From assembly GCA_002782305.1 (NCBI GenBank), contig PFHN01000070.1, positions 1 to 39,967 on the forward strand: a stretch of 39,967 bases of DNA, written 5' to 3'. How positions within the stretch are numbered: the stretch's first letter is position 1; the number at the start of each line of letters is the position of its first letter. The notes below the pieces were generated by a model, which ran no database searches, was not told where the DNA came from, and saw only the letters and a program-made list of their open reading frames with translations. This stretch comes from Candidatus Moranbacteria bacterium CG_4_8_14_3_um_filter_41_13 (GTDB taxonomy: Bacteria; Patescibacteriota; Minisyncoccia; Moranbacterales; UBA1568). Made by a program: the position numbers and the translations under genes. Below are positions 1-39,308 of the stretch, in pieces.

Positions 1-45
1 CGAAAAATTTCCTATGGATGCCGTAGAGTGAGGGAATATTTTTCG
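1..45 (+). repeat. Core hairpin of a palindromic repeat family (second copy at 37401..37446 in opposite orientation); element cut by the window edge
   Basis: CGAAAAATTTCC-N20-GGAATATTTTTCG. By hand alignment about 41 of 45 positions match the reverse complement of 37401..37446. Weaker similarity continues to about nt 90. Confidence 0.6.
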
Positions 46-258
46 TAAATAAAGAAGAGCTTTTGAGTCTGGAGCAGAGAAAAAAGATTGCTTTTGGTTC
101 TTTTCCTCTACAAGATTGGAAGGATTGCTCTGCAAAGGAGAATACAGGTCTCATACATTCTCTCTTTGATAATGCCGTCACATCGCCCTCAAAGGTTGAT
201 TGTTTCTGAGAAGTGTGTATACTACGATAGTAGTAACTCATTAATAGGATATACTCTT

Positions 259-12032: not shown

Positions 12033-12063
12033 AAAAGAGACCCTCTATTCGGGTCCTTTTTTT
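12031..12063. terminator. Bidirectional intrinsic terminator between gpmI and clpP
   Basis: A run, GACCC-N7-GGGTC, then T run. Lies between convergent stops. Confidence 0.65.
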
Positions 12064-12074
12064 GTTTCATTTTA

Positions 12075-30390: not shown

Positions 30391-30591
30391 GTGATTGTCG
30401 TAAGTTTATTGTTTTCTGCACTCCTGGTCTCTGTCGGTAACATTTGTGACACAAAGTGCCGTTAGAAAATGAGCGTGACGCTCGGAGCTGTTTCGGCTCT
30501 TAGAGCAGGACAGATCTTTTCTCGGCGACTTTCGTCTCAAATGTTCGACAGAGAGAAAAGGGAAAGAAAACAATAAACTTACGAAAATCAC
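30391..30591. repeat. About 200-nt rod-like imperfect palindrome with 26-nt terminal inverted repeats (MITE-like element or structured RNA)
   Basis: GTGATTGTCGTAAGTTTATTGTTTTC (30391..30416) versus GAAAACAATAAACTTACGAAAATCAC (30566..30591), 25 of 26 complementary. Interior pairs continue: TCTCTGTCG/CGACAGAGA, AACATTTG/CAAATGTT, AAAGT/ACTTT, GCCG/CGGC, AGAAAA/TTTTCT. Confidence 0.7.
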
Positions 30592-30889: not shown

Positions 30890-30900
30890 AGAAAAAATAT

Positions 30901-30962
30901 CAAAGTTTTTTAGGGAGACATTCGTCAAAATTGCTTTGACGCGGATCATCTAAAAACTTTTT
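30901..30962 (+). repeat. Palindromic intergenic repeat, copy A
   Basis: CAAAGTTTTTTAGGGAGACATTCGTCAAAATTGCTTTGACGCGGATCATCTAAAAACTTTTT. Has terminal inverted repeats and a central 7-bp hairpin. Confidence 0.85.
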
Positions 30963-30992
30963 TATTTTTTCATAATCAATATAACAGCAGGA

Positions 30993-32240
30993 CTATTTAT
31001 CTTTCCACACATATACAGCGTCATTGATACGTACTCTTTTGGTCACGGGAAAAGTTACTGTATCACCTTTTTTTCCGCTCTGCAAAGGCTTCATCTCAGC
31101 ATCACGCAATTCTCCGATTTTCCCTTCATAGACTCCTGTTGTTACACCCAAAATGCGAATTTCATCACCCTGTGAAAGTGTTCCTGCATCGATGATCATT
31201 TCGGCGACGCCTACTTTGGCAAAATATTTTTTCACTGTTCCAACAAATATTTTTCCCTTGGTCGCTTGTGATCCATGGACATCGCTATACGCTTCCAGTT
31301 CTTTGCCGAGATAATAATTCCCTTTCGAAAGCCCCCTATGATATACCGTTTTCAGCGCTCTGAAATATTCTACAATTTTTTCTTTCGTATAGGTTCTGTT
31401 CTCAATATCGGTCAGCGCTTGTCTATATGTTTTCGTCACGGTGTAGACATATTCCGGTGAACGTCCTCGCCCTTCAATCTTCCACGTTTGTACCCCTGAC
31501 TTGAGGAGTTCGTCCAAGAAATCGATCGTACAAATATCTGCAGCGCTCATGACGAAATGATTGTCCAAAATAAGTTCCTTGCCCGTTTCCATATCGGTTA
31601 CTTTGTATTCTTTGCGACAATTTTGGAGACATGCACCACGATTCGCAGAGGCATTATCGGTATAACTACTCATGAAACAACGGCCTGATTGAGCCACACA
31701 AAGAGCTCCATGAACGAAGGCTTCTATTTCCATCAATCTCCCTTCTCGTCCAAGGAGTTTTTCTTCTCTTATGCGATCGTAAATAGCCTTGATTTGATCC
31801 AGTGTCAGTTCACGAGCCAGTACGACTCTATTCGTCATAGTGGCAAAGAATTTCAGTGATTCAAAATTGGAAACAGAAAATTGCACAGAGACATGCACGG
31901 GCATACCAATCTCATTACAATACTGAATCGTTGCAAAATCAAAAGCGATGATAGCATCGATATGATTTGTTTTCGCAGCGTCCACGAGCTTCCTCATAAT
32001 TTTCGTATCATGATCATAGAGGAGGGTGTTGACTGCGAGGTATGTCTTCACATTTTTCTTTTGGCAAATGTCCGCGACTTCCGCCAGATCCGCAAGTGTG
32101 AGATTGGCAGCAGCCCGAGCGCGCATATTGAGCTGAGTCACACCAAAATACACGCTGTTGCACCCGCCCTTGATAGCGGCTGCCAAACTCTCGAAACTCC
32201 CTGCTGGAGCCATAATTTCGACATCTTTTGTATCAATCAT
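30993..32240 (-). CDS. Peptidase U32 family protein (TrhP/RlhA/UbiU-type candidate RNA or quinone hydroxylation factor)
   Basis: 415 aa. N-terminal TIM-barrel-like MAPAGSFESLAAAIKGGCNSVYFG and the U32 signature EAFVHGALCVAQSGRCFMSSY. Confidence 0.85.
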   Translation of the reverse strand: MIDTKDVEIMAPAGSFESLAAAIKGGCNSVYFGVTQLNMRARAAANLTLADLAEVADICQKKNVKTYLAVNTLLYDHDTKIMRKLVDAAKTNHIDAIIAFDFATIQYCNEIGMPVHVSVQFSVSNFESLKFFATMTNRVVLARELTLDQIKAIYDRIREEKLLGREGRLMEIEAFVHGALCVAQSGRCFMSSYTDNASANRGACLQNCRKEYKVTDMETGKELILDNHFVMSAADICTIDFLDELLKSGVQTWKIEGRGRSPEYVYTVTKTYRQALTDIENRTYTKEKIVEYFRALKTVYHRGLSKGNYYLGKELEAYSDVHGSQATKGKIFVGTVKKYFAKVGVAEMIIDAGTLSQGDEIRILGVTTGVYEGKIGELRDAEMKPLQSGKKGDTVTFPVTKRVRINDAVYVWKDK

Positions 32241-32328
32241 AGGTATATCTTTACGTCAAATAAGTGTACTGTATTTTCACGGAAAAAGAAAGAGTGATGG
32301 AACATAATGGTCTCTGCCACGTATATTA

Positions 32329-32357
32329 TTGACACTCTTTTTCTCTTCTGTTACACT
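32329..32357 (+). promoter_or_regulatory. Candidate sigma70-type promoter of the Rrf2-suf operon
   Basis: TTGACA (32329..32334), a 17-nt spacer, then TACACT (32352..32357). Lies 26 nt upstream of the Rrf2 ATG. Confidence 0.35.
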
Positions 32358-32375
32358 AAAGCAGACAATTTTAGT
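32355..32375. promoter_or_regulatory. Inverted repeat overlapping the -10 region (candidate Rrf2 operator)
   Basis: ACTAAA-N9-TTTAGT between the putative -10 and the Rrf2 start codon. Confidence 0.25.
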
Positions 32376-32382
32376 CCACATT

Positions 32383-32790
32383 ATGAAAGTATCCAAAAAA
32401 GCCTACTACGGACTGAGAGCTATTCTCGCTCTCGCCCAAACCGAAAAGCCTCTTTCTATCCATGCACTGGCTGAGATGGAGCACCTCCCCGAAACCTATC
32501 TTGAGAAAATTCTTCAGACACTTCGCAAAGCGGGTCTCGTGACAGCTCACAAAGGAGTCTCCGGTGGTTATGCTCTCGCTCGCTCTGCAAACAATATCAG
32601 CATCTGGGATGTTCTCTCCCCTCTCGATGGGCCAATGAAACCTTTCTCCTCGTCTCTCAAAGGAACTCTACCCTGCCTACAAGTCAGTCACTGCCAAACC
32701 AACGAAGTTTGGAGGACACTAGAAAATAAAATAGAAAAAACACTCTCAGATATTTCTCTCTCTAGTCTTATTCCAAAAAATATTCCTTAA
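32383..32790 (+). CDS. Rrf2 family transcriptional regulator
   Basis: MKVSKKAYYGLRAILALA... winged-helix N-terminus. Two Cys in LPCLQVSHC. First gene of the suf cluster. Confidence 0.88.
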   Translation: MKVSKKAYYGLRAILALAQTEKPLSIHALAEMEHLPETYLEKILQTLRKAGLVTAHKGVSGGYALARSANNISIWDVLSPLDGPMKPFSSSLKGTLPCLQVSHCQTNEVWRTLENKIEKTLSDISLSSLIPKNIP

Positions 32791-32800
32791 TTTTTTTCCT

Positions 32801-33535
32801 ATGATCACACTCGAAAAACTTTCTGTTTCTATAGAAGAGAAGAAAATCCTGCACGATATTTCATTCACTTTCAAACCAGGGAAGACTTATGCCATTATGG
32901 GTCCCAACGGTTCTGGGAAATCGACTCTTGCGAGTAGCATTATGGGACATCCAAGCATCGCCTATTCTCGTGCCTCGAAAATCTTCATAGAGGAAAAGCC
33001 TGCTCGCCGTAGGAGGGATATCAAGACTCTTTCTCCTGATAAAAGATCTCTCCTTGGCCTTTTTCTCTCATTTCAAACACCGATGACATTATCAGGCGTG
33101 ACGGTTTTCGAACTCCTTCGTCTGGCGCTGGAAAAGAAAATGGATCCAGTCGCTTTGCATCAAAAAGTAACAGAGTATGCGAAGGAACTCTCTATCAAAG
33201 ACGAACTTCTCAAACGTTCTCTCAATGATGGATTCTCTGGCGGAGAAAAGAAGAAGCTTGAAGCTCTACAGGCGGTACTTCTCTCACCATCGTTCGCACT
33301 TTTCGATGAGATTGATACTGGTGTCGATGTGGATAGTCTCAAAACTATTTCTCATTTCTTAAAAAAACATCTCGCTAAAAAAACAACACTTGTTTTCATT
33401 ACACACTCGACTCGTCTTCTCTCATACATCAAACCAGATGAAGTGATAGTCATCAAAGAAGGTCGTCTCGTGAAAACAGGTACTGGTACTCTCGCAAAAA
33501 AAATTGAAGAAAAAGGATTTGAATCTATCATATAA
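32801..33535 (+). CDS. sufC: Fe-S cluster assembly ATPase SufC
   Basis: Walker [13 protein letters not shown] signature FSGGEKKK and Walker [11 protein letters not shown]. Sits in a suf context. Confidence 0.93.
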
Positions 33536-33536
33536 T

Positions 33537-34943
33537 ATGAAGCGTACAAAGAAAAAAAATATCGACCTCGGCGATTATAAGTACGGTTTTGCTATGCCAG
33601 AACACTCTGTGCACAAGACCAATTTAGGCTTAAATAAAAGAATCGTGAGCGAAATATCACACGTCAAAAATGAGTCTCCTTGGATGCGAGATATCCGTCT
33701 TTCGGCGTATGAAATTTTCAAAAAAAAGCCAATGCCGGTGTGGGGCGCAGATCTTTCAAAAATTGATTTCAATGCTATTACTTATTATCTCAAAGCCACC
33801 GACAAACAAGTAACGAGTTGGGATGATCTCCCGAAAGATATCAAGGACACGTATGACCGCATCGGTGTTCCAGAGTCAGAAAAGAAATTCCTCGCTGGTG
33901 TGTCGGCACAGTATGAATCAGAAGTCGTATATGAAAGTATGAGCAAAGAACTTGATAGACTCGGAGTCATCTTCTGCGATATGGATACAGCAGTGAAAAA
34001 ATATCCGGAAATTGTCAAAAAATATTTCGGGACACTTATTCCAACGAATGATAACAAATTTGCTGCCTTGAATACGGCCGTATGGTCAGGAGGATCCTTC
34101 GTCTACGTACCCAAAGGCGTGAAAGTAGACCTCCCACTTCAAGCTTATTTCCGCATCAATGCCGAAGCCTTCGGACAATTCGAACGAACGCTCATCATTG
34201 CAGAAGAAGGAAGCTCTGTACACTACGTCGAAGGTTGCACAGCACCTATTTATACCACATCATCTCTCCATTCTGCTGTCGTCGAAATCTTCGTGAAAAA
34301 AAATGCCCACGTACGTTACACAACTGTTCAAAACTGGAGCACCAACATCTTCAACCTCGTGACGAAACGTGCCAAAGCCGAAGAGAACGCAGTGATGGAA
34401 TGGGTGGATTGCAATATCGGATCAGGTGTGACTATGAAATATCCTGCGGTATACCTCACAGGCAGGGGTGCTCACGGAGAAGTTCTTTCTATTGCCTACG
34501 CGGGTAAGAATCAACACCAAGACGCCGGTGCCAAGATGGTACATCTCGCGCCCAATACTACTTCGCGTGTCATTTCCAAATCTCTTTCCAAAGATGGTGG
34601 TCGCACATCGTATCGCGGTCTCGTCCACATCGGTCGTGGTGCCACCAATGCCAGGGCCTCCGTTGTCTGTGATGCCCTCCTTCTTGATGATATTTCTCGC
34701 TCAGATACCTATCCCACGATGTCCATCAAAGAAAAAACAGCCATCTTCGAACACGAGGCAACCGTCGAAAAAATAGGAGAAGAAAAGCTTTTTTACCTTA
34801 TGTCACGCGGTATCACAAAGACCGATGCAGAAGGACTCCTCGTCAATGGATTCATCGATCCTGTCGTAAAAGAGATTCCTCTGGAATACTCTATTGAATT
34901 AAACAGACTCATGAGTATGAATATGGAAGGAAGTATCGGATAA
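33537..34943 (+). CDS. sufB: Fe-S cluster assembly scaffold SufB
   Basis: 468 aa from ATG 33537, directly after the sufC stop. SufB-type beta-helix core with FVYVPKGV... and ...[17 protein letters not shown]. Confidence 0.93.
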
Positions 34944-34949
34944 AAATAT

Positions 34950-35555
34950 ATGCACTGGAAAGACATCACAACTGACAGAGAGACAACCTATACGCTCACA
35001 GAAAATGAGCAGTGTGTTTTCTTCTTGTTCAATCGTTCGGGCAATCTTACCTTTGAACTCACTGGTAGAAATGCCGAGGCACATATCTTCGCCTTCTTCG
35101 TCGGCAAGAAAGAATGCAAACATACCCTCACCATTATACAAAATCACCGCGCTCCGAAAACTATTTCTCACACCCTTATCAAAAGTGTCGTGTCAGATGC
35201 ATCGGTATGTATGTATGATGGTACTCTTTTCATTGACACCAATGCTCTCGGGAGTGATGCGTCGCAAGAAAGTCGCGCCCTCCTTCTTTCTTCGGATGCC
35301 ACCGTTTCTATGAAGCCAACACTAGAAATCCTTGCTGACGACGTACAATGTTCCCACAAAGCGACCGCTAGCCCTCTCGATAGAGAAGCATTATTCTTCG
35401 CAGAATCTCGTGGAATATCCCCGAAAAAAGCCGAAAAACTCCTTATTTCTGGATTTTGGAATGATGCTTTCGAAAAAATAGCTCTGCTTCTCCCAAAAGA
35501 AGAAAAAATAAAAGAGCGCCTCCTCTCTCTTCTCTCTCATAAAACAATATTGTAA
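34950..35555 (+). CDS. sufD: Short SufD-like protein (201 aa)
   Basis: SufB/D C-terminal signature LEILADDVQCSHKATASPLDREALFFAESRGISPKKAEKLLISGF. Only 201 aa. Confidence 0.8.
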   Translation: MHWKDITTDRETTYTLTENEQCVFFLFNRSGNLTFELTGRNAEAHIFAFFVGKKECKHTLTIIQNHRAPKTISHTLIKSVVSDASVCMYDGTLFIDTNALGSDASQESRALLLSSDATVSMKPTLEILADDVQCSHKATASPLDREALFFAESRGISPKKAEKLLISGFWNDAFEKIALLLPKEEKIKERLLSLLSHKTIL

Positions 35556-35599
35556 TACCATACATACCGATTATCAACGGTCGTGGTTTATCGGTAACA

Positions 35600-36838
35600 A
35601 TGAGACTTATGCTCAACACGAGTCAAATCAAAAAAGATTTTCCTCTCTTCACACATCATCCAGATTTGGTGTATTTGGACTCGGCCGCGACAGCCCTCAA
35701 GACGCAAGGAGTGATTGATGCAGAGAGAGCATACCTCGAGGAGTATTCAACAAATGTCATGCGTGGTCTGTATCCTCTCGCCGAAACAGCCACAGAAAAA
35801 TTTGAAATGACGCGAGAGAAAATGGCTACGTTTATCGGTGCCAAAAGCTCGAGTGAAATCATCTTCACTTCTGGAACAACAGATGCTCTCAACCTTGTTT
35901 CAAAACTCCTCGCTTCACAAATAGAAAAGGGAGATACTCTTGTGACAACAGCAATGGAACATCATTCCAATTTTCTCCCTTGGAAGGAATTAGCAAAAAC
36001 CAAGTCGGCGGATCTACATATTGTTTCTCTCACAAAAGAAGGAATGATTGATAGAGAAAGTCTCAAAAAATCTATCGATGAACACACAAAAATTGCTTCA
36101 TTCTCTGCTGTTTCCAATGTTTTAGGGACAATCAATCCTGTGAAAGAAATTATCGCTCTCATTCGCAGTATCAATCCAAAAACGCTCATCGTCATCGATG
36201 CCGCTCAAGCAGTGTGTCATATGCCTATGAGTGTTTCAGATTGGGATGCTGATTTTGTCGCTTTCTCAGGACACAAAATGTTCGGACCAACAGGTACAGG
36301 AATCCTCTATGGAAAATACTCGCTCCTCGAAACACTTCCTCCTGTCAATTTTGGTGGAGGTATGGTGCTCGATAGTTGCGCCGAAGATACCCTCTATAAG
36401 GAATCTCCATATTGTTTCGAAGCAGGCACGCCAAATATCGGAGGAATGATCGCACTCGGTAGTGCTATTGATTATATAGAAAATATCGGGCTTCAGAATA
36501 TCCATCTTCACGAAACAACTCTTGCTTCGTACGCGATAGAGAAACTGAAAGAAACTTTTGGAGAAGACATCTCCATTATCGGACCAAGTAAGAAGGAGAA
36601 GCGAAGTGGCATCATCGCATTCACTCTCGCGAACGTTCATCCTCATGATATCGCTGGAATACTTGGTGAACAAAATATATGCGTCAGAGCAGGAGAACAC
36701 TGCACAACCCCTCTTCATCACAGCCTCAGACTTTCTGCCACTACTCGTCTTTCACTTTCCATATACAATAACGAAAATGACATCGACAAATTCATTTCAG
36801 TCCTCAAAGAAATTCAAGCGATGTTTCTCAATAAGTAA
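35600..36838 (+). CDS. sufS: Cysteine desulfurase SufS (class V aminotransferase)
   Basis: PLP lysine motif FSGHKMFGPTGTGILYG and active-site RAGEHCTTPL. An alternative start is ATG 35609. Confidence 0.93.
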   Translation: MRLMLNTSQIKKDFPLFTHHPDLVYLDSAATALKTQGVIDAERAYLEEYSTNVMRGLYPLAETATEKFEMTREKMATFIGAKSSSEIIFTSGTTDALNLVSKLLASQIEKGDTLVTTAMEHHSNFLPWKELAKTKSADLHIVSLTKEGMIDRESLKKSIDEHTKIASFSAVSNVLGTINPVKEIIALIRSINPKTLIVIDAAQAVCHMPMSVSDWDADFVAFSGHKMFGPTGTGILYGKYSLLETLPPVNFGGGMVLDSCAEDTLYKESPYCFEAGTPNIGGMIALGSAIDYIENIGLQNIHLHETTLASYAIEKLKETFGEDISIIGPSKKEKRSGIIAFTLANVHPHDIAGILGEQNICVRAGEHCTTPLHHSLRLSATTRLSLSIYNNENDIDKFISVLKEIQAMFLNK

Positions 36839-36856
36839 TTATAACTCAAAAAGAAT

Positions 36857-36928
36857 TTCAAAAGTTTTTTAGGGAACGTTTAGCGAAATTGCTTCGATTT
36901 CGGTAGGGTTCATCTAAAAACTTTTGAA
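36857..36928 (+). repeat. Palindromic intergenic repeat, copy B (most divergent, with an internal insertion)
   Basis: TTCAAAAGTTTTTTAGGGAACGTTTAGCGAAATTGCTTCGATTTCGGTAGGGTTCATCTAAAAACTTTTGAA. Confidence 0.8.
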
Positions 36929-36969
36929 ATATTTTCCAGCAATCACTATAACTTCAATTCATAAATACT

Positions 36970-37335
36970 ATGTCTCTCTACCAAGACCTCATCCTCGATC
37001 ACTATCGCAATCCCCGCAATCAAGGGACACTCAAAAATGCGACTCATAGCGCTGATGCAGCGAATCTTTCGTGTGGAGATAAGCTTCATATAGACATAAT
37101 CGTCAAAAATGATATTATAGAAGAAGTGAAGTTTTCTGGTTCTGGATGTGCTATTTCTCAGTCATCAGCTTCTCTTTTGACAGAGCATATCAGAAAGCAC
37201 ACAGTGAAGCAGGCCCTCTCACTTGAGCCGAAAGACATTCTCGATCTTATCTTGGTAACGCTTTCTCCAGCTCGGCTGAAATGCGGACTCCTTTCACTCG
37301 AGACCGTCAAGAAGGCGCTCAATCAAGAGAAATAA
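36970..37335 (+). CDS. sufU: SufU/IscU-like Fe-S scaffold / sulfur acceptor
   Basis: LILDHYRNPRN, CGDKLHIDI, GSGCAISQSSASL and ARLKCGLL motifs. Confidence 0.9.
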   Translation: MSLYQDLILDHYRNPRNQGTLKNATHSADAANLSCGDKLHIDIIVKNDIIEEVKFSGSGCAISQSSASLLTEHIRKHTVKQALSLEPKDILDLILVTLSPARLKCGLLSLETVKKALNQEK

Positions 37336-37342
37336 AATTGTA

Positions 37343-37505
37343 TTATACTGGGAGATATATTTTTTTCCTCACCGCAAGACTCCTCGCCTCTCTGTTTTTT
37401 CCGAAAAATTTCCTTCACTCGACCGCATCCATAGGAAATTTTTCGAAAACAGAGGACTCTTCAAACAAGTTGCGGAACCAGAAAAAAATATATCTCCCAG
37501 TATAA
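37343..37505. repeat. 163-nt imperfect palindrome with perfect 24-nt terminal inverted repeats (MITE-like element or structured RNA)
   Basis: TTATACTGGGAGATATATTTTTTT (37343..37366) is the exact reverse complement of 37482..37505. Interior pairs are CCGCAA/TTGCGG, CTCTGTTTT/AAAACAGAG and core CCGAAAAATTTCC/GGAAATTTTTCG. Confidence 0.75.
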
Positions 37506-37578
37506 TCCACAATCTCATAAAATAAAGAGAGGGTGAAGGTGAGGAGTTTTCGAAAAATAATTTAATAAAAGAAATGTT

Positions 37579-37851
37579 ATGTCACAATGGAAAGACGAAA
37601 CAAAGCCACACGGTCCAGTAACACTCGCAAATGGATGGACTGTAGAAGTCGATGCCAGTGCCTGCATTGGAGCTGCTCCTTGCACCGCTATGGCTGCCAA
37701 TACCTTTGCATTAAATGATGATGGGAAAGCAGGCATACTTGCTACTCTTGATCAAGACGATCAGGAAACCATTCTCAATGCTGCTCGTTCTTGCCCTGTC
37801 GCTGCTATTATCATCAAAGATGAAACAGGAAAAGTTATTTTTCCGGAATAA
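37579..37851 (+). CDS. Small ferredoxin, probably [3Fe-4S] type
   Basis: CIGAAPC ... CPVAAI (CxxAxxC...CP pattern). 90 aa. Confidence 0.8.
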   Translation: MSQWKDETKPHGPVTLANGWTVEVDASACIGAAPCTAMAANTFALNDDGKAGILATLDQDDQETILNAARSCPVAAIIIKDETGKVIFPE

Positions 37852-37897
37852 TCTTTGAAATAAATCTCTCTAAAATAAAAACGGATACGGAAAAGAT

Positions 37898-37964
37898 TTC
37901 AAAAGTTTTTAGATGATCCTCGCCGAAGCAATTTCGCCGAATGGCTCCCTAAAAAACATTTGAA
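37898..37964 (-). repeat. Palindromic intergenic repeat, copy C (inverted relative to A and B)
   Basis: TTCAAAAGTTTTTAGATGATCCTCGCCGAAGCAATTTCGCCGAATGGCTCCCTAAAAAACATTTGAA. Confidence 0.85.
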
Positions 37965-38016
37965 ATCTTTTCTCGCATTAGCTTCGATTATATGTTTGAT
38001 GTTCAATAAAAACACC

Positions 38017-38334
38017 ATGGCAACAAAAAAAATCCCAATTAAGAATCAAGTCATAGAGAAACTCAAACTCGTACTCGACCCCGAGCTCGGTATTTCTGTG
38101 TGGGATTTGGGTCTTATTTATAACATCCTCATTGATAAAGAAGGTATTTGTACCACCACGATGACACTCACCACTATCGGCTGTCCCTTGTTTGCGCAAA
38201 TCCAAAAAGAGATAGAGGATCGTATTATGGAGATAAAGGAAATCAATGATGTGAAAGTTGAGCTCGTTTTCGATCCACCGTGGAGTGTCGAAAAAATGTC
38301 CGAAGAATCAAAAATCCGCCTTGGTCTTGATTAG
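38017..38334 (+). CDS. sufT: SufT/DUF59 (MIP18-family) Fe-S assembly protein
   Basis: LKLVLDPELGISVWDLGLIYNI ... TLTTIGCPL. Start at ATG 38017, because the upstream part of the tracked ORF runs through repeat C. Confidence 0.85.
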   Translation: MATKKIPIKNQVIEKLKLVLDPELGISVWDLGLIYNILIDKEGICTTTMTLTTIGCPLFAQIQKEIEDRIMEIKEINDVKVELVFDPPWSVEKMSEESKIRLGLD

Positions 38335-38361
38335 TAGTGACATATACAAAAAAGAAAAAAT

Positions 38362-38424
38362 AAAAAAGTTTTTAGATGATCCGCGTCAAAGCAGTTTTGA
38401 CAAATGGCTCCTAAAAAACCTTTG
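38362..38424 (-). repeat. Palindromic intergenic repeat, copy D (inverted relative to A and B)
   Basis: AAAAAAGTTTTTAGATGATCCGCGTCAAAGCAGTTTTGACAAATGGCTCCTAAAAAACCTTTG. Lies between the convergent sufT and korB. Confidence 0.85.
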
Positions 38425-38450
38425 GGATATTTTTTTATTCCTCCTCTTCG

Positions 38451-39308
38451 TTATGTATATTTCCCGATAAGCGTACTCAAGGCCTTATCATCAAACGTTT
38501 TCTCATACAATGGCTCATCACCTTCGCGGACGAGCGTTTCATAGGTTGGCTTCCCTGTTCGTTCGTAGATGATGCCCAAGGCAAGTCTTTCAAGATCAAA
38601 AGCGAGTTTCAATGCTTCCATTTTGCCGGTTTTATCATGCGTTTCATCGACATAATAACATTTTTCCTTGAACCACTGATACGTATTTTGTTTGTTGAAC
38701 ACGACACACGGCTGGAATACATCCACGAGTGCATAGCCCTTGTGAAGAATCGCTGCTTTGATAATTTCTTTCGTTTGCAAAATATCTCCCGTAAACGCAC
38801 GCGCCACAAATGTTGCATCCAGTGAAAGTGCCACGGCAAGTGGATTAAACTGATCAACAATAACACCGTCTGGCTGGATAGGATTTACGAGTCCTTTCTC
38901 GCTCATCGGCGAAGCCTGACCCTTCGTCAAACCATAGATCATATTGTCATGCACGATGTTCGTGATGTCAGGGTTACGACGAATAGTGTGGATGAAATGA
39001 TTTCCTCCTTCGCCATACGTATCGCCATCACCACTCTCTGCGATGACAGTCAATCGTGGATTCACATTCTTAATAGCAATAGCTGGTGGCAGTGCCCTCC
39101 CGTGGAGACCATTAAAATAATTCACACGCAGATAATGAGGGGTCTTGGCGGCCTGACCAATACCCGAACAAATCACAGCGTTCTCTGGTGTGATATCGAG
39201 TTCTGAAAGCGCCATTTTCACGATATTCAAAATAGGGAAGTTGCCACAACCTGGACACCAGGCCATATCCGTCCCCCTTGGCATATCATAGAGTTTTTTA
39301 TCGACCAT
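38451..39308 (-). CDS. 2-oxoacid:ferredoxin oxidoreductase beta subunit (TPP-binding; KorB/OorB-like)
   Basis: WCPGCGNFPIL, GDGDTYGEGGNHF and a typical length of 285 aa. Confidence 0.9.
   Translation of the reverse strand: MVDKKLYDMPRGTDMAWCPGCGNFPILNIVKMALSELDITPENAVICSGIGQAAKTPHYLRVNYFNGLHGRALPPAIAIKNVNPRLTVIAESGDGDTYGEGGNHFIHTIRRNPDITNIVHDNMIYGLTKGQASPMSEKGLVNPIQPDGVIVDQFNPLAVALSLDATFVARAFTGDILQTKEIIKAAILHKGYALVDVFQPCVVFNKQNTYQWFKEKCYYVDETHDKTGKMEALKLAFDLERLALGIIYERTGKPTYETLVREGDEPLYEKTFDDKALSTLIGKYT

Follow-up and report, generated by a model that had tools for sequence, protein, structure and literature searches.

A low-copy, probably mobile hairpin repeat of Candidatus Moranbacteria as a candidate transcription terminator

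The suf operon of Candidatus Moranbacteria bacterium CG_4_8_14_3_um_filter_41_13 raises the question of why four copies of one palindromic repeat are gathered in the gaps between its Fe-S and ferredoxin genes. An earlier note on the window (the whole stretch of DNA analysed, 39,967 nt of contig PFHN01000070.1) offered three readings: REP/MITE-like selfish DNA, RNA processing or stability punctuation, and protein-binding sites. The repeat turns out to be a previously undescribed family within an already known class of bacterial repeats, rather than an Fe-S-specific signal, and its copies are best read, on balance, as REPIN/SPRITE-like mobile palindromes serving as terminator or attenuator hairpins, a role suggested by their position and sequence.

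All four repeats lie where they had been described, with a mutual identity of 84-89% over 69-80 nt as given by a repeat finder (89% across 80 nt between copies A and D). An unfiltered covariance-model search of the whole window scored them at 71-102 bits, the next match reaching only 14.5 bits; there are thus exactly four, all within 30.9-38.4 kb, which bears out the claim that the other ~30 kb is free of them, and the 9.3 kb searched past the window end held no copy. Copy A is an 81-nt hairpin on the minus strand (30891..30971; 82.6 bits), with its conserved blocks at 30943-30959 and 30905-30919, between the stop of a U32 peptidase (30993) and the start of a 78-aa ferredoxin (30843). Copy B, a minus-strand hairpin of ~90 nt (36848..36937; 78.7 bits), separates the sufS stop (36838) from the sufU start (36970) and belongs to a subtype marked by an insertion of 6 nt and an extended central stem; its ortholog is L024:174-302. 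Copy C is an 84-nt plus-strand hairpin (37889..37972; 102.1 bits) between the stop of a 90-aa ferredoxin (37851) and the start of sufT, with an ortholog at L002:1508-1598, and copy D, an 83-nt plus-strand element (38354..38436; 71.1 bits), lies between the convergent genes sufT (stop 38334) and korB/POR-beta (stop 38451), its outer stem being partly decayed and its A and T tracts 6-7 nt long. The orientations reported by the earlier note, A, C and D sense to local transcription and B antisense, hold, and the real coding sequences are free of all four copies. An open reading frame running from TTG 37960 across copy C is an artefact, sufT starting at ATG 37999 or 38017.

Each element is a single long hairpin, 80-100 nt across the family, built from the outside inwards of an A-tract/T-tract base, an outer stem of ~12-16 bp in which pairing is kept and sequence is free, then the conserved stem AAGTTTTTAG/CTAAAAAAC, whose bulges are fixed, next the stem GAACC/GGTTC, and at the centre a hairpin that varies. 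The 13-15-nt inverted repeats that had been taken as terminal are therefore not the ends: pairing continues ~12-16 bp further, into the A-tract and T-tract, so that the window elements measure 81-90 nt. Every window copy contains two invariant blocks, AAGTTTTTAGATGAACC ... GGTTCCCTAAAAAAC. With copy C as the example, the 5' block AAGTTTTTAGATGA(A/T)CC (37903..37919, plus strand) comprises the lower conserved stem (AAGTTTTTAG), the conserved bulge AT and the upper conserved stem (GA(A/T)CC); it pairs with the 3' block GG(T/C)TCCCTAAAAAAC (37943..37957, plus strand) except for one C and one A in excess. The central stems and loops, and the compensatory A-T to G-C change, had been read correctly in all four copies; the inner blocks AGGGAG and GATCATC, however, belong to a helix that pairs as GAACC/GGTTC in other genomes and in window copies A, C and D is interrupted by a T.C mismatch. 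Over 35 copies the block columns are at least 95% conserved. Pairing holds in 93% of cells, and double changes affect 16 of the 34 pairs, as against 9.5 +/- 1.4 double-changing pairs in shuffles (none of 500 reaching 16) and 4-9 in slid controls. Stem covariation is thus strong, and it also appears between orthologous copies (1-5 double compensatory changes per pair).

The family occurs in a subset of uncultured Candidatus Moraniibacteriota (CPR/Patescibacteria), in at least seven metagenome-assembled genomes (MAGs), at about 30 distinct sites and with 2-13 copies per genome. The collection comprises 26 true exact-pattern matches in six Moraniibacteriota/Patescibacteria MAGs, a few further copies found through the covariance model and five from metagenomes; a 767-kb contig gave only two exact matches. 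The element is absent from Rfam and from the phages and viral contigs searched, and no earlier account of it was found in the searched literature. It is not scattered in the hundreds of copies that would, according to the earlier note, have made the association with Fe-S genes coincidental; yet it stands mostly beside non-Fe-S genes, the neighbours at 16 non-suf sites being unrelated housekeeping genes. The Fe-S/ferredoxin association is nevertheless real, but positional: long hairpins occupy 10 of 20 ferredoxin-flanking gaps, compared with 5 of 142 gaps elsewhere (p = 1.6e-7); those in the ferredoxin gaps come from at least nine unrelated families. The best explanation for the four copies around the suf operon is such a local hotspot in ferredoxin-flanking gaps, not an Fe-S-specific function. 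Two palindromic elements of the window lie within the hotspot and outside the repeat family studied here: one of 171 nt (family 2; 37339..37509; dG -67 kcal/mol) fills the sufU|ferredoxin gap, and one of 201 nt (family 3; 30391..30591; dG -93.5 kcal/mol) occupies the gap from dus to the 78-aa ferredoxin.

The element is probably a mobile hairpin. Copies have been gained or lost at orthologous sites and their orientation can flip: sites B, C and D are each filled in some genomes and empty in others, and site D and a DprA|TopA site hold differing subtypes or opposite orientations between genomes. The copying unit is the whole hairpin, as seen in copies L019a and L042, which are 97.6% identical over 82 nt between unrelated flanks; L024 carries a nested insertion within its own copy. 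Taken together, varying occupancy, flips and whole-hairpin copies at unrelated sites indicate that the element moves or has moved. Cores are kept more alike within genomes than between them (identity 0.77 vs 0.65; p = 0.0005, with copies treated here and in the other statistics as independent although some share ancestry), forming genome-specific subfamilies, and the outer stem displays no genome effect, its sequence being specific to each locus. Some enzyme would move, or have moved, the elements, with the invariant asymmetric core as its putative recognition site; a RAYT/IS200-type single-strand DNA transposase is one candidate. No target-site duplication or sharp element end is visible around the copies, no transposase linked to the family was found in the ~300 kb examined from element-bearing genomes, and a related genome has a RAYT-like Y1 transposase between REP hairpins of its own. 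All four copies are kept unchanged in every strain-level relative, so that no closely related filled/empty pair is available. Selfish DNA of the REP/MITE kind is consequently the best supported in kind of the note's three readings, given the dispersal, variable occupancy and genome-specific subfamilies, albeit at low copy number and without target-site duplication.

The positions of the copies suggest what the hairpins may do. Copies persist almost only downstream of genes, with 23 in tandem, 10 in convergent and 1 in divergent contexts (p = 0.012); divergent promoter gaps are thus avoided (1 of 34 copies), and tandem copies are more often sense (17) than antisense (6; p = 0.035). The summed A and T tracts are longer at convergent than at tandem sites (median 12.5 vs 8.5; p = 0.003). 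Between convergent genes of the window, at an empty site (12037..12065), lies an intrinsic terminator of the classical bidirectional type, AAAAAGAGACCC-tctattc-GGGTCCTTTTTTT, and the orthologous position in L021 and L036 holds the element; L002 likewise has a classical bidirectional terminator at an empty orthologous convergent site. The sufT|korB junction, where copy D sits, has a bidirectional terminator in 9 of 9 relatives sampled blind, and in the window and L024 the element ends only 4-19 nt short of the stop codons on either side, so that a further terminator would not fit. These comparisons suggest that the element has in places replaced ordinary transcription terminators. Once transcribed, the hairpin with its U-tract would bring about intrinsic termination, in both directions and in place of the ordinary terminator where gene ends converge; within operons it could be a weaker attenuator or a hairpin protecting 3' ends.

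The same observations have to be weighed against other readings. The element might chiefly be an RNA structure selected to act in cis as a signal for processing or stability between cistrons, such as a substrate of RNase III or a hairpin shielding 3' ends, one that sets the relative expression of its neighbours (for example, of ferredoxin within the suf mRNA) and whose spread is secondary. We think this unlikely, although the copies occupy transcribed intergenic positions 9-37 nt past stop codons, prefer the sense orientation, have a lower stem of ~24 bp that would fit RNase III, and, where old and orthologous, are much better conserved than their flanks and carry compensatory changes; unrelated hairpins have moreover been gained independently in the same two ferredoxin-side gaps, and processing by RNase III and RNase E has precedents in Correia and ERIC repeats (PMC10969869). 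What weighs against it is that a strand-specific signature is lacking, with 10 G.U pairs vs 13 A.C pairs on the mRNA strand and a sense fold no more stable than the antisense fold, that either orientation occurs at orthologous sites, that a quarter of the tandem copies are antisense, and that the close relatives L002 and L024 at the same gaps, like 10 other suf operons, do without the element. The RNA punctuation of the earlier note is accordingly plausible as a transcript-level effect, judging by position, orientation bias and A/T tracts, but not as one specific to Fe-S genes. The strand-symmetric Watson-Crick complementarity, with no G.U excess, would suit purely selfish or neutral palindromic DNA without host effect, in which pairing is kept by template switching between arms or by gene conversion and the position bias marks only where insertions are tolerated. 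Ragged palindrome ends, cores homogenised within genomes, the clustering and nesting of several palindrome families in the same gaps, as in BOX, RUP and SPRITE (PMC10969869), and enrichment downstream of genes, the usual mark of tolerated insertions (PMC3049150), point the same way. We nonetheless consider this quite improbable: the element is the sole hairpin at convergent junctions where relatives have a terminator, and so most likely took over that function; A/T tracts are longer precisely at convergent sites; and orthologous copies are 80-91% identical vs 13-68% for their flanks, far above neighbouring non-coding DNA, in genomes whose proteins are only 60-90% identical. Another host role than termination could also lie behind this strong conservation of old copies.

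A site bound in double-stranded DNA by a regulator or nucleoid protein, for instance by the Rrf2-family protein whose gene heads the suf operon, with the copies marking an Fe-S regulon, is highly improbable. Two invariant blocks of 15-17 nt kept across species, an Rrf2 gene (32383-32790) adjoining the copy cluster and the grouping of the window copies around Fe-S genes would agree with it, but in other genomes most copies flank unrelated genes, their downstream position all but avoids divergent promoter gaps, the suf promoter region of the window holds no copy by the covariance model, and none was found in ten Rrf2-bearing suf operons of relatives sampled blind. Furthermore, covarying stems with conserved bulges are what one would expect of a folded single strand and not of a duplex operator, and half-sites ~40 nt apart are too distant for a typical dimeric winged-helix site, Rrf2/IscR operators being about 25-29 bp. 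An Rrf2/Fe-S operator role is thus not supported, and the invariant asymmetric core may still bind a protein.

The preferred reading, a mobile palindrome co-opted as terminator or attenuator, places the element among several known systems. Correia/NEMIS of Neisseria and ERIC of enterobacteria are MITE-type repeats; RNase III processes Correia transcripts and RNase E those of ERIC, with effects on mRNA levels (PMC10969869). Like the Moranbacteria element, both are intergenic palindromes co-transcribed with genes as long hairpins, and Correia shares the in-place inversion seen here at orthologous sites. However, Correia elements, about 100-200 bp long and present in more than 100 copies, are bounded by defined terminal inverted repeats, have TA target duplications and carry promoters as well as an IHF site (PMC10969869), and none of these four features was found here. 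REPINs (Bertels and Rainey, 2011, PMC3116915; bioRxiv 10.1101/2021.07.10.451892) are likewise ~90-nt hairpins outside genes with two inverted invariant blocks, a less conserved spacer paired through compensatory changes, and long, largely vertical persistence as genome-specific populations, and the related Moranbacteria genome with a RAYT-like gene adds to this likeness. Yet the conserved blocks here are internal, with the variable outer stem outside them, whereas the conserved 16-mers of REPINs are terminal; the individual arms are not themselves palindromic REPs; the 2-13 copies fall far below the tens to hundreds of typical REP/REPIN populations; and no cognate RAYT was found next to any copy, the REP sequence of the only RAYT seen (L062) being unrelated to the element. 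With the classical bidirectional intrinsic (rho-independent) terminator the element shares the order of A-tract, hairpin and T-tract and a place between convergent genes, no more than about 20 nt from either stop, exactly at the positions of relatives' terminators. It differs in its AU-rich hairpin of ~35 bp interrupted by conserved bulges, whose AU-rich outer stems, set beside the GC-rich stems of classical terminators in the same genomes, count against the terminator role, in 32 invariant nucleotides common to unrelated loci and species and unneeded by a terminator, and in occurring also inside operons. SPRITE, a low-copy repeat of Firmicutes with about 30 copies per genome (PMC3049150), offers a parallel in many respects: both are AT-rich, small and interspersed, form a long duplex with a U-rich tract behind it and simple AAAA/TTTT ends, lack a demonstrable target-site duplication or known transposase, are over-represented between convergent genes, sit near the 3' ends of genes, and co-cluster with other repeat families, and terminator co-option has been suggested for both. 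Unlike SPRITE, to which it has no sequence relationship, the Moranbacteria element lives in a CPR host and combines an internal core that is invariant and asymmetric with a covarying central hairpin; mutual pairing of its A/T tracts makes it symmetric and able to act in both directions, and the replacement of classical terminators is seen directly at its orthologous sites.

Four copies of a palindromic repeat stand in the window where the earlier note had placed them, as direct inspection confirmed, and a repeat finder aligns them pairwise at 84-89% identity over 69-80 nt. The central stems, loops, orientations and single compensatory change described in that note are each right; the element, which had been taken to be 63-72 nt long, is bigger, since pairing extends beyond the supposed terminal repeats into the A-tract and the T-tract, so that each copy forms one hairpin of 81-90 nt. 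Gene assignment with Pfam gives a minus-strand order of U32 peptidase, copy A (30891-30971), a 78-aa ferredoxin, a 201-nt palindrome and dus, and a plus-strand order of Rrf2, sufC, sufB, sufD, sufS, copy B (36848-36937), sufU, a 171-nt palindrome, a 90-aa ferredoxin, copy C (37889-37972), sufT and copy D (38354-38436), after which the korB/POR-beta gene follows, convergent to sufT. The copies start 9-37 nt past the upstream stop codon and finish 14-47 nt ahead of the next gene. Folding is much stronger than in shuffles for three of the four (z about -4 to -6), but not for copy D, whose outer stem has decayed. A covariance model trained on 30 family members and run across the entire window with filters off gave 71-102 bits to the four copies, against 14.5 bits for the next best match, an unrelated palindrome, and no further copies were found in the 9.3 kb past the window end. 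Rfam holds no family matching the element, the only matches in the window at gathering thresholds being two tRNAs elsewhere, and a permissive scan of 36800-38480 returned weak non-specific matches only (e.g., miRNA hairpins), all far under the thresholds. A good sigma-70-like promoter match (TTGACA and TACACT spaced by 17 nt, plus a TG extension) at 32329-32357 closely precedes the Rrf2 gene as annotated in public assemblies (135 aa, start near 32383), and the 153-aa ORF that begins at the TTG at 32329 is therefore probably too long.

The consensus anatomy was obtained from a model-guided alignment of 31-35 copies. At the base of the hairpin an A-rich 5' end is paired with a T-rich 3' end, followed by about 12-16 bp of outer stem, free to vary in sequence, and by an invariant stem AAGTTTTTAG/CTAAAAAAC that carries an additional A. 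Further inward come a conserved AT bulge facing a single C, the GAACC/GGTTC stem, an internal loop and, finally, a variable central hairpin. The invariant blocks (17 and 15 nt) are mutually paired, and the spacer between them varies while its stem covaries. A k-turn in the conserved bulge was considered and rejected because no tandem G.A pairs are present. Standard pairs occupy 93% of the cells in the alignment, and changes on both sides are seen at 16 of 34 pairs, compared with 9.5 +/- 1.4 in column shuffles (0/500 reach the observed value), falling to 4-9 when the partners are slid by 1-3 columns. The pairing is nearly pure Watson-Crick, with 15 G.U pairs that are no commoner than A.C pairs (23); an A.C pair is a G.U pair when read on the opposite strand. 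Orienting the copies by mRNA strand gives 10 G.U against 13 A.C, and a test of RNA-strand asymmetry was negative, sense-strand folds not being more stable than antisense ones (8/13, p = 0.37). As neither a G.U excess nor a sense-fold advantage is present, the structure is kept on DNA or for the sake of both strands, and the hairpin does not look like an RNA structure of a single strand. The invariant blocks also hold stop codons (TAG, TGA and TAA) in several frames on both strands, so that an insertion near a gene end can provide a new stop codon. At L013:6573-7133, a locus from a related genome, a peptidyl-tRNA hydrolase ORF terminates 22 nt into an element, its stop being the TAG of the conserved TTTTTTAGGG.

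A search of one genome per species for an exact pattern, derived from the blocks common to all four copies, gave 26 true copies, spread over six Candidatus Moraniibacteriota/Patescibacteria MAGs, besides four chance matches. The covariance model added three copies within the same loci, and a scan of metagenomes only 5 further independent copies. The family is sparse in its hosts, each MAG having 2-13 copies and one 767-kb contig no more than 2 exact matches, and was not found in viral contigs or phage records. The window's organism is widespread: 143 blocks of the assembly collection list its KorB, with contigs reaching 89 kb, and homologues of its ferredoxin are labelled Moranbacteria by their sources.

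Several loci syntenic with the window allow filled and empty sites to be compared. The gap between sufS and sufU (site B) is filled in the window and in the related locus L024, while in L002, another such locus, the two genes are only 10 nt apart. The gap between the ferredoxin and sufT (site C) is filled in the window and L002 and empty in L024, where it measures 7 nt, and the site downstream of sufT (site D) is filled in the window, L023 and L024 by three different subtypes in both orientations and is empty in L002. In the DprA|TopA gap, L009 and L038 are both filled, in opposite orientations, and the window is itself empty at sites filled in L021/L036 and in L030. L025/L015 had been considered as an orthologue of site A and was set aside, as no fer78, U32 or dus gene is found there. 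What is copied is the entire hairpin from A-tract to T-tract, as follows from L019a and L042, which have 82 nt in common at 97.6% between unrelated flanks, and from window copies A and D, with 80 nt in common at 89%; recent copies accordingly share about 80-82 nt, whereas the ends of the palindrome are ragged, pairing stopping at differing points among copies (60-123 nt). The element is thus probably mobile. No flanking direct repeats were found in 32 copies, and in this apparent lack of a target-site duplication the element differs from MITEs. In the closest relative available (L068, 99.8% identical) all copies are unchanged, so neither a precise empty site nor a target-site duplication can be defined from it. 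MITEs derive from an autonomous IS element of the same or a related genome and share its ends; no IS element with ends matching the family was seen in the 8-kb loci examined, and a recurrent neighbouring protein as mobilising enzyme was rejected, since the two 158-aa ORFs beside copies are unrelated and probably spurious. An apparent 155-nt strain-specific insertion splitting the U32 peptidase at L031:17481-17580 proved to be a scaffolding artefact, made up of 100 N and a 55-nt duplicated overlap. In the orthologue of copy B at L024:174-302, a 32-nt GC-rich hairpin, AGGCCCGCCTGCCACGATGTAGCACTTCGGGC, which may be another small mobile hairpin, is nested between the conserved T-run and AGGGAAC.

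Once in place, the elements appear to be under constraint. Orthologous elements are 80-91% identical, compared with 13-68% for the adjoining intergenic DNA, and the proteins of the compared genomes are only 60-90% identical. Double compensatory substitutions separate the orthologues at site C (2), at the iPGM site (5) and between L015 and L013b (3). The core of the hairpin and its outer stem behave differently. Core identity reaches 0.77 inside a genome, compared with 0.65 across genomes (permutation p = 0.0005), whereas the outer stem displays no genome effect (0.66 vs 0.64, p = 0.18); the copies L016 and L019b have identical cores and outer stems that differ at four pairs, each on both sides. 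Such a genome-specific core needs either homogenisation within the genome, by gene conversion or re-insertion, or co-evolution with a genome-encoded partner, and its decoupling from a locus-specific outer stem represents a concrete puzzle on how these elements are copied or homogenised.

The position of the copies relative to genes points to a role at the ends of transcription units. After genes had been re-called by codon-usage scoring, those copies flanked on each side by a called gene were counted, and 23 were found in tandem, 10 in convergent and 1 in divergent context (convergent vs divergent p = 0.012), the tandem copies being mostly in sense orientation (17 sense, 6 antisense, p = 0.035). 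Element GC content is 27-48%, and the copies of the window and L024 lie 4-37 nt from stop codons. Both available empty orthologues of convergent sites (window 12037-12065, and L002 downstream of sufT) hold a textbook bidirectional intrinsic terminator. The same was observed in suf neighbourhoods sampled blind, that is, chosen solely through a ferredoxin homologue and the length of the contig, where a bidirectional intrinsic terminator occupies sufT|korB in 9/9 genomes. Altogether, a classical terminator is found at this junction in ten genomes and the element alone in the window and L024, where it fills the gap to within 4-19 nt of the flanking stops and is hence the sole hairpin there. In L023 the element directly follows sufT, and the convergent neighbour is a different, 480-aa gene. 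The uninterrupted A+T runs at the stem base are also longer at convergent sites, with a median sum of 12.5 compared with 8.5 inside operons (Mann-Whitney p = 0.003). From sequence and position, we infer that at transcription-unit ends the element would serve as a bidirectional intrinsic terminator, and that inside operons, where the GAAAAGA/UCUUUUC base is weaker, it would act at most as an attenuator or as a hairpin protecting 3' ends. The sufT|korB junction offers unusually direct comparative evidence that a mobile repeat can assume the job of an intrinsic terminator.

The earlier note had found the copies only in intergenic gaps of Fe-S and ferredoxin genes, and this link holds for position and not for function. 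Beyond the suf loci the flanking genes are unrelated (pth|L25, PMT|FtsQ, rmlB|rmlC, pilC, iPGM, UvrA, GlmS|RNase T, DprA|TopA, a DEAD-box helicase and a SpoU methylase), and ten blind-sampled suf operons, covering 160 kb and with Rrf2, contain zero copies; the family therefore has no Fe-S-specific role. The operator of an Rrf2/IscR-type regulator is a palindromic duplex of about 25-29 bp in the promoters of regulated Fe-S genes, and an operator reading of the element finds no support, because the suf promoter gap is without a copy, the copies lie downstream of genes, and the ten Rrf2-suf operons lack the element. A role like that of DNA uptake sequences was dropped, since the conserved 12-mer never occurs singly in the window, save for one match with one mismatch, which is within chance. 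A likeness to the type II CRISPR repeat GTTTTAG...AAAAC was discounted, because the copies are scattered one by one and form no array, and no tool result speaks for it. Integron attC sites, whose R'/R'' consensus presumably does not fit the element, were rejected as well, the flanks being conserved syntenic housekeeping genes and the orientation non-uniform.

The positional part of the link concerns palindromic elements in general, for which the gaps flanking the ferredoxin are a hotspot. Every gap was folded and scored against shuffles, a long hairpin being defined as at least 100 nt with z <= -4, and in the ten blind-sampled Moranbacteria suf neighbourhoods (L058-L067), of the 20 gaps on either side of the suf-operon 90-aa ferredoxin, 10 hold such a hairpin, compared with 5 of 142 other gaps (Fisher p = 1.6e-7). 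Among these five, three lie between or beside korA and xse genes and one adjoins a second ferredoxin gene. In the gaps flanking the suf ferredoxin and those round the second ferredoxin nearby, long hairpins have been gained independently from at least nine unrelated families with no detectable mutual similarity, including relatives of the window's two other palindromes. The window and its extension contain six clear palindromic elements, all inside 30.4-38.4 kb. The hotspot may arise either from tolerance of insertions or from selection for a hairpin there. It is conceivable, if rather unlikely, that in Moranbacteria mobile palindromes are interchangeable structural punctuation, the host selecting hairpins of any origin at the ferredoxin gaps and the operon end. 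Hairpins selected in this way could stabilise or insulate the ferredoxin transcript segment, or end transcription, and the repeat families would then supply a very small genome with a stock of ready-made regulatory modules; the missing sense-strand folding advantage gives no positive support to RNA-level selection at the hotspot. The hotspot is a testable lead on the tuning of expression within operons in unculturable organisms.

The two other palindromes of the window are unrelated to the element. The 171-nt hairpin at 37339-37509 (dG -67 kcal/mol, with 29-nt near-perfect ends) fills the sufU|ferredoxin gap; a truncated inverted copy lies at window 1-88 (77% over 88 nt), and a relative in L060 (86%) occupies the same gap in opposite orientation. 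The 201-nt hairpin at 30391-30591 (dG -93.5 kcal/mol) separates dus from the 78-aa ferredoxin. It has family members at L060:2091-2314, L058:1425-1689, L025:5218-5350 and L028:1-53 that are 86-90% identical across species; the L060 member is at the same site, the L058 member in the sufU|ferredoxin gap. Nothing in Rfam matches this hairpin at gathering thresholds, and it may be either a mobile element or a structured RNA that is conserved. Further features were observed around korA in the compared loci. A reverse transcriptase (RVT_1) adjoins a bAvd gene right beside korA at L059:12729-14259, a pairing characteristic of diversity-generating retroelements; at L067:10721-11083, korB and korA are separated by an inserted 23S_rRNA_IVP-family gene; and the 631-nt korA|xseB gap at L067:12823-13453 folds exceptionally well (dG -239 kcal/mol, z -7.9).

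Among known repeats, the closest architectural analogue of the element is the REPIN, which consists of two highly conserved inverted blocks and a less conserved spacer forming a hairpin with compensatory changes (PMC3116915), and which persists vertically over long times in genome-specific populations (PMC3116915; bioRxiv 10.1101/2021.07.10.451892). The element, too, has two invariant paired blocks and a variable covarying spacer. However, the ends of REPINs are, or overlap, REPs, themselves short imperfect palindromes, whereas AAGTTTTTAGATGAACC and GGTTCCCTAAAAAAC of the element are not palindromic and lie internally, with 12-16 bp of variable outer stem outside them, and REPIN populations reach tens to hundreds per genome, compared with 2-13 for the element, i.e., ten to a hundred times fewer. 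With its internal, non-palindromic blocks and low copy number, the element falls outside the REPINs on the tested features. A REPIN system also has a cognate single-copy RAYT (Y1_Tnp) gene in its genome, flanked by the REP/REPIN sequence. The only RAYT seen belongs to a REPtron-like locus at L062:14326-15044, in a related Moranbacteria genome, where a 219-aa Y1_Tnp (RAYT/IS200-like) gene (Pfam 31.6 bits, cutoff 23) is bracketed on both sides by the 21-nt palindrome CTTGGAGGTCGAACCTCCAAG in the classic REPtron layout; RAYT enzymology is thus present in the Moranbacteria lineage. This palindrome is unrelated to the element family, and a tblastn search with the RAYT-like protein gave no match in the 8-kb element-bearing loci. 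Two more CTTGGAGGTCGAACCTCCAAG copies lie in frame within the Y1_Tnp coding sequence, where the protein repeats HQLGGSTSK, an arrangement reminiscent of Rickettsia palindromic elements, which also insert in frame.

The closest functional analogue, in a class defined by function and not by homology, is SPRITE of Streptococcus pneumoniae, an AT-rich repeat with AAAA/TTTT ends, about 30 copies per genome and no demonstrable target duplication or transposase, which is enriched between convergent genes near 3' ends and whose co-option as a terminator has been proposed by its authors (PMC3049150). The element likewise is an AT-rich long duplex with a T-rich tail, enriched at convergent sites (10 vs 1 divergent) near gene 3' ends. 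Inversion in place and RNase III processing have precedents in Correia elements, and the clustering and nesting of repeat families in BOX, RUP and SPRITE (PMC10969869). No description of interspersed palindromic repeats in CPR/Patescibacteria was found in the literature searched. As this family shows, tiny, dense CPR/Patescibacteria genomes still keep small populations of probably mobile hairpins, and the covariance model can be used to annotate the elements and to avoid spurious ORFs across them. The element is a new family, a small, low-copy and probably mobile REPIN/SPRITE-like palindrome of a Moranbacteria subclade that in places replaces an intrinsic terminator.
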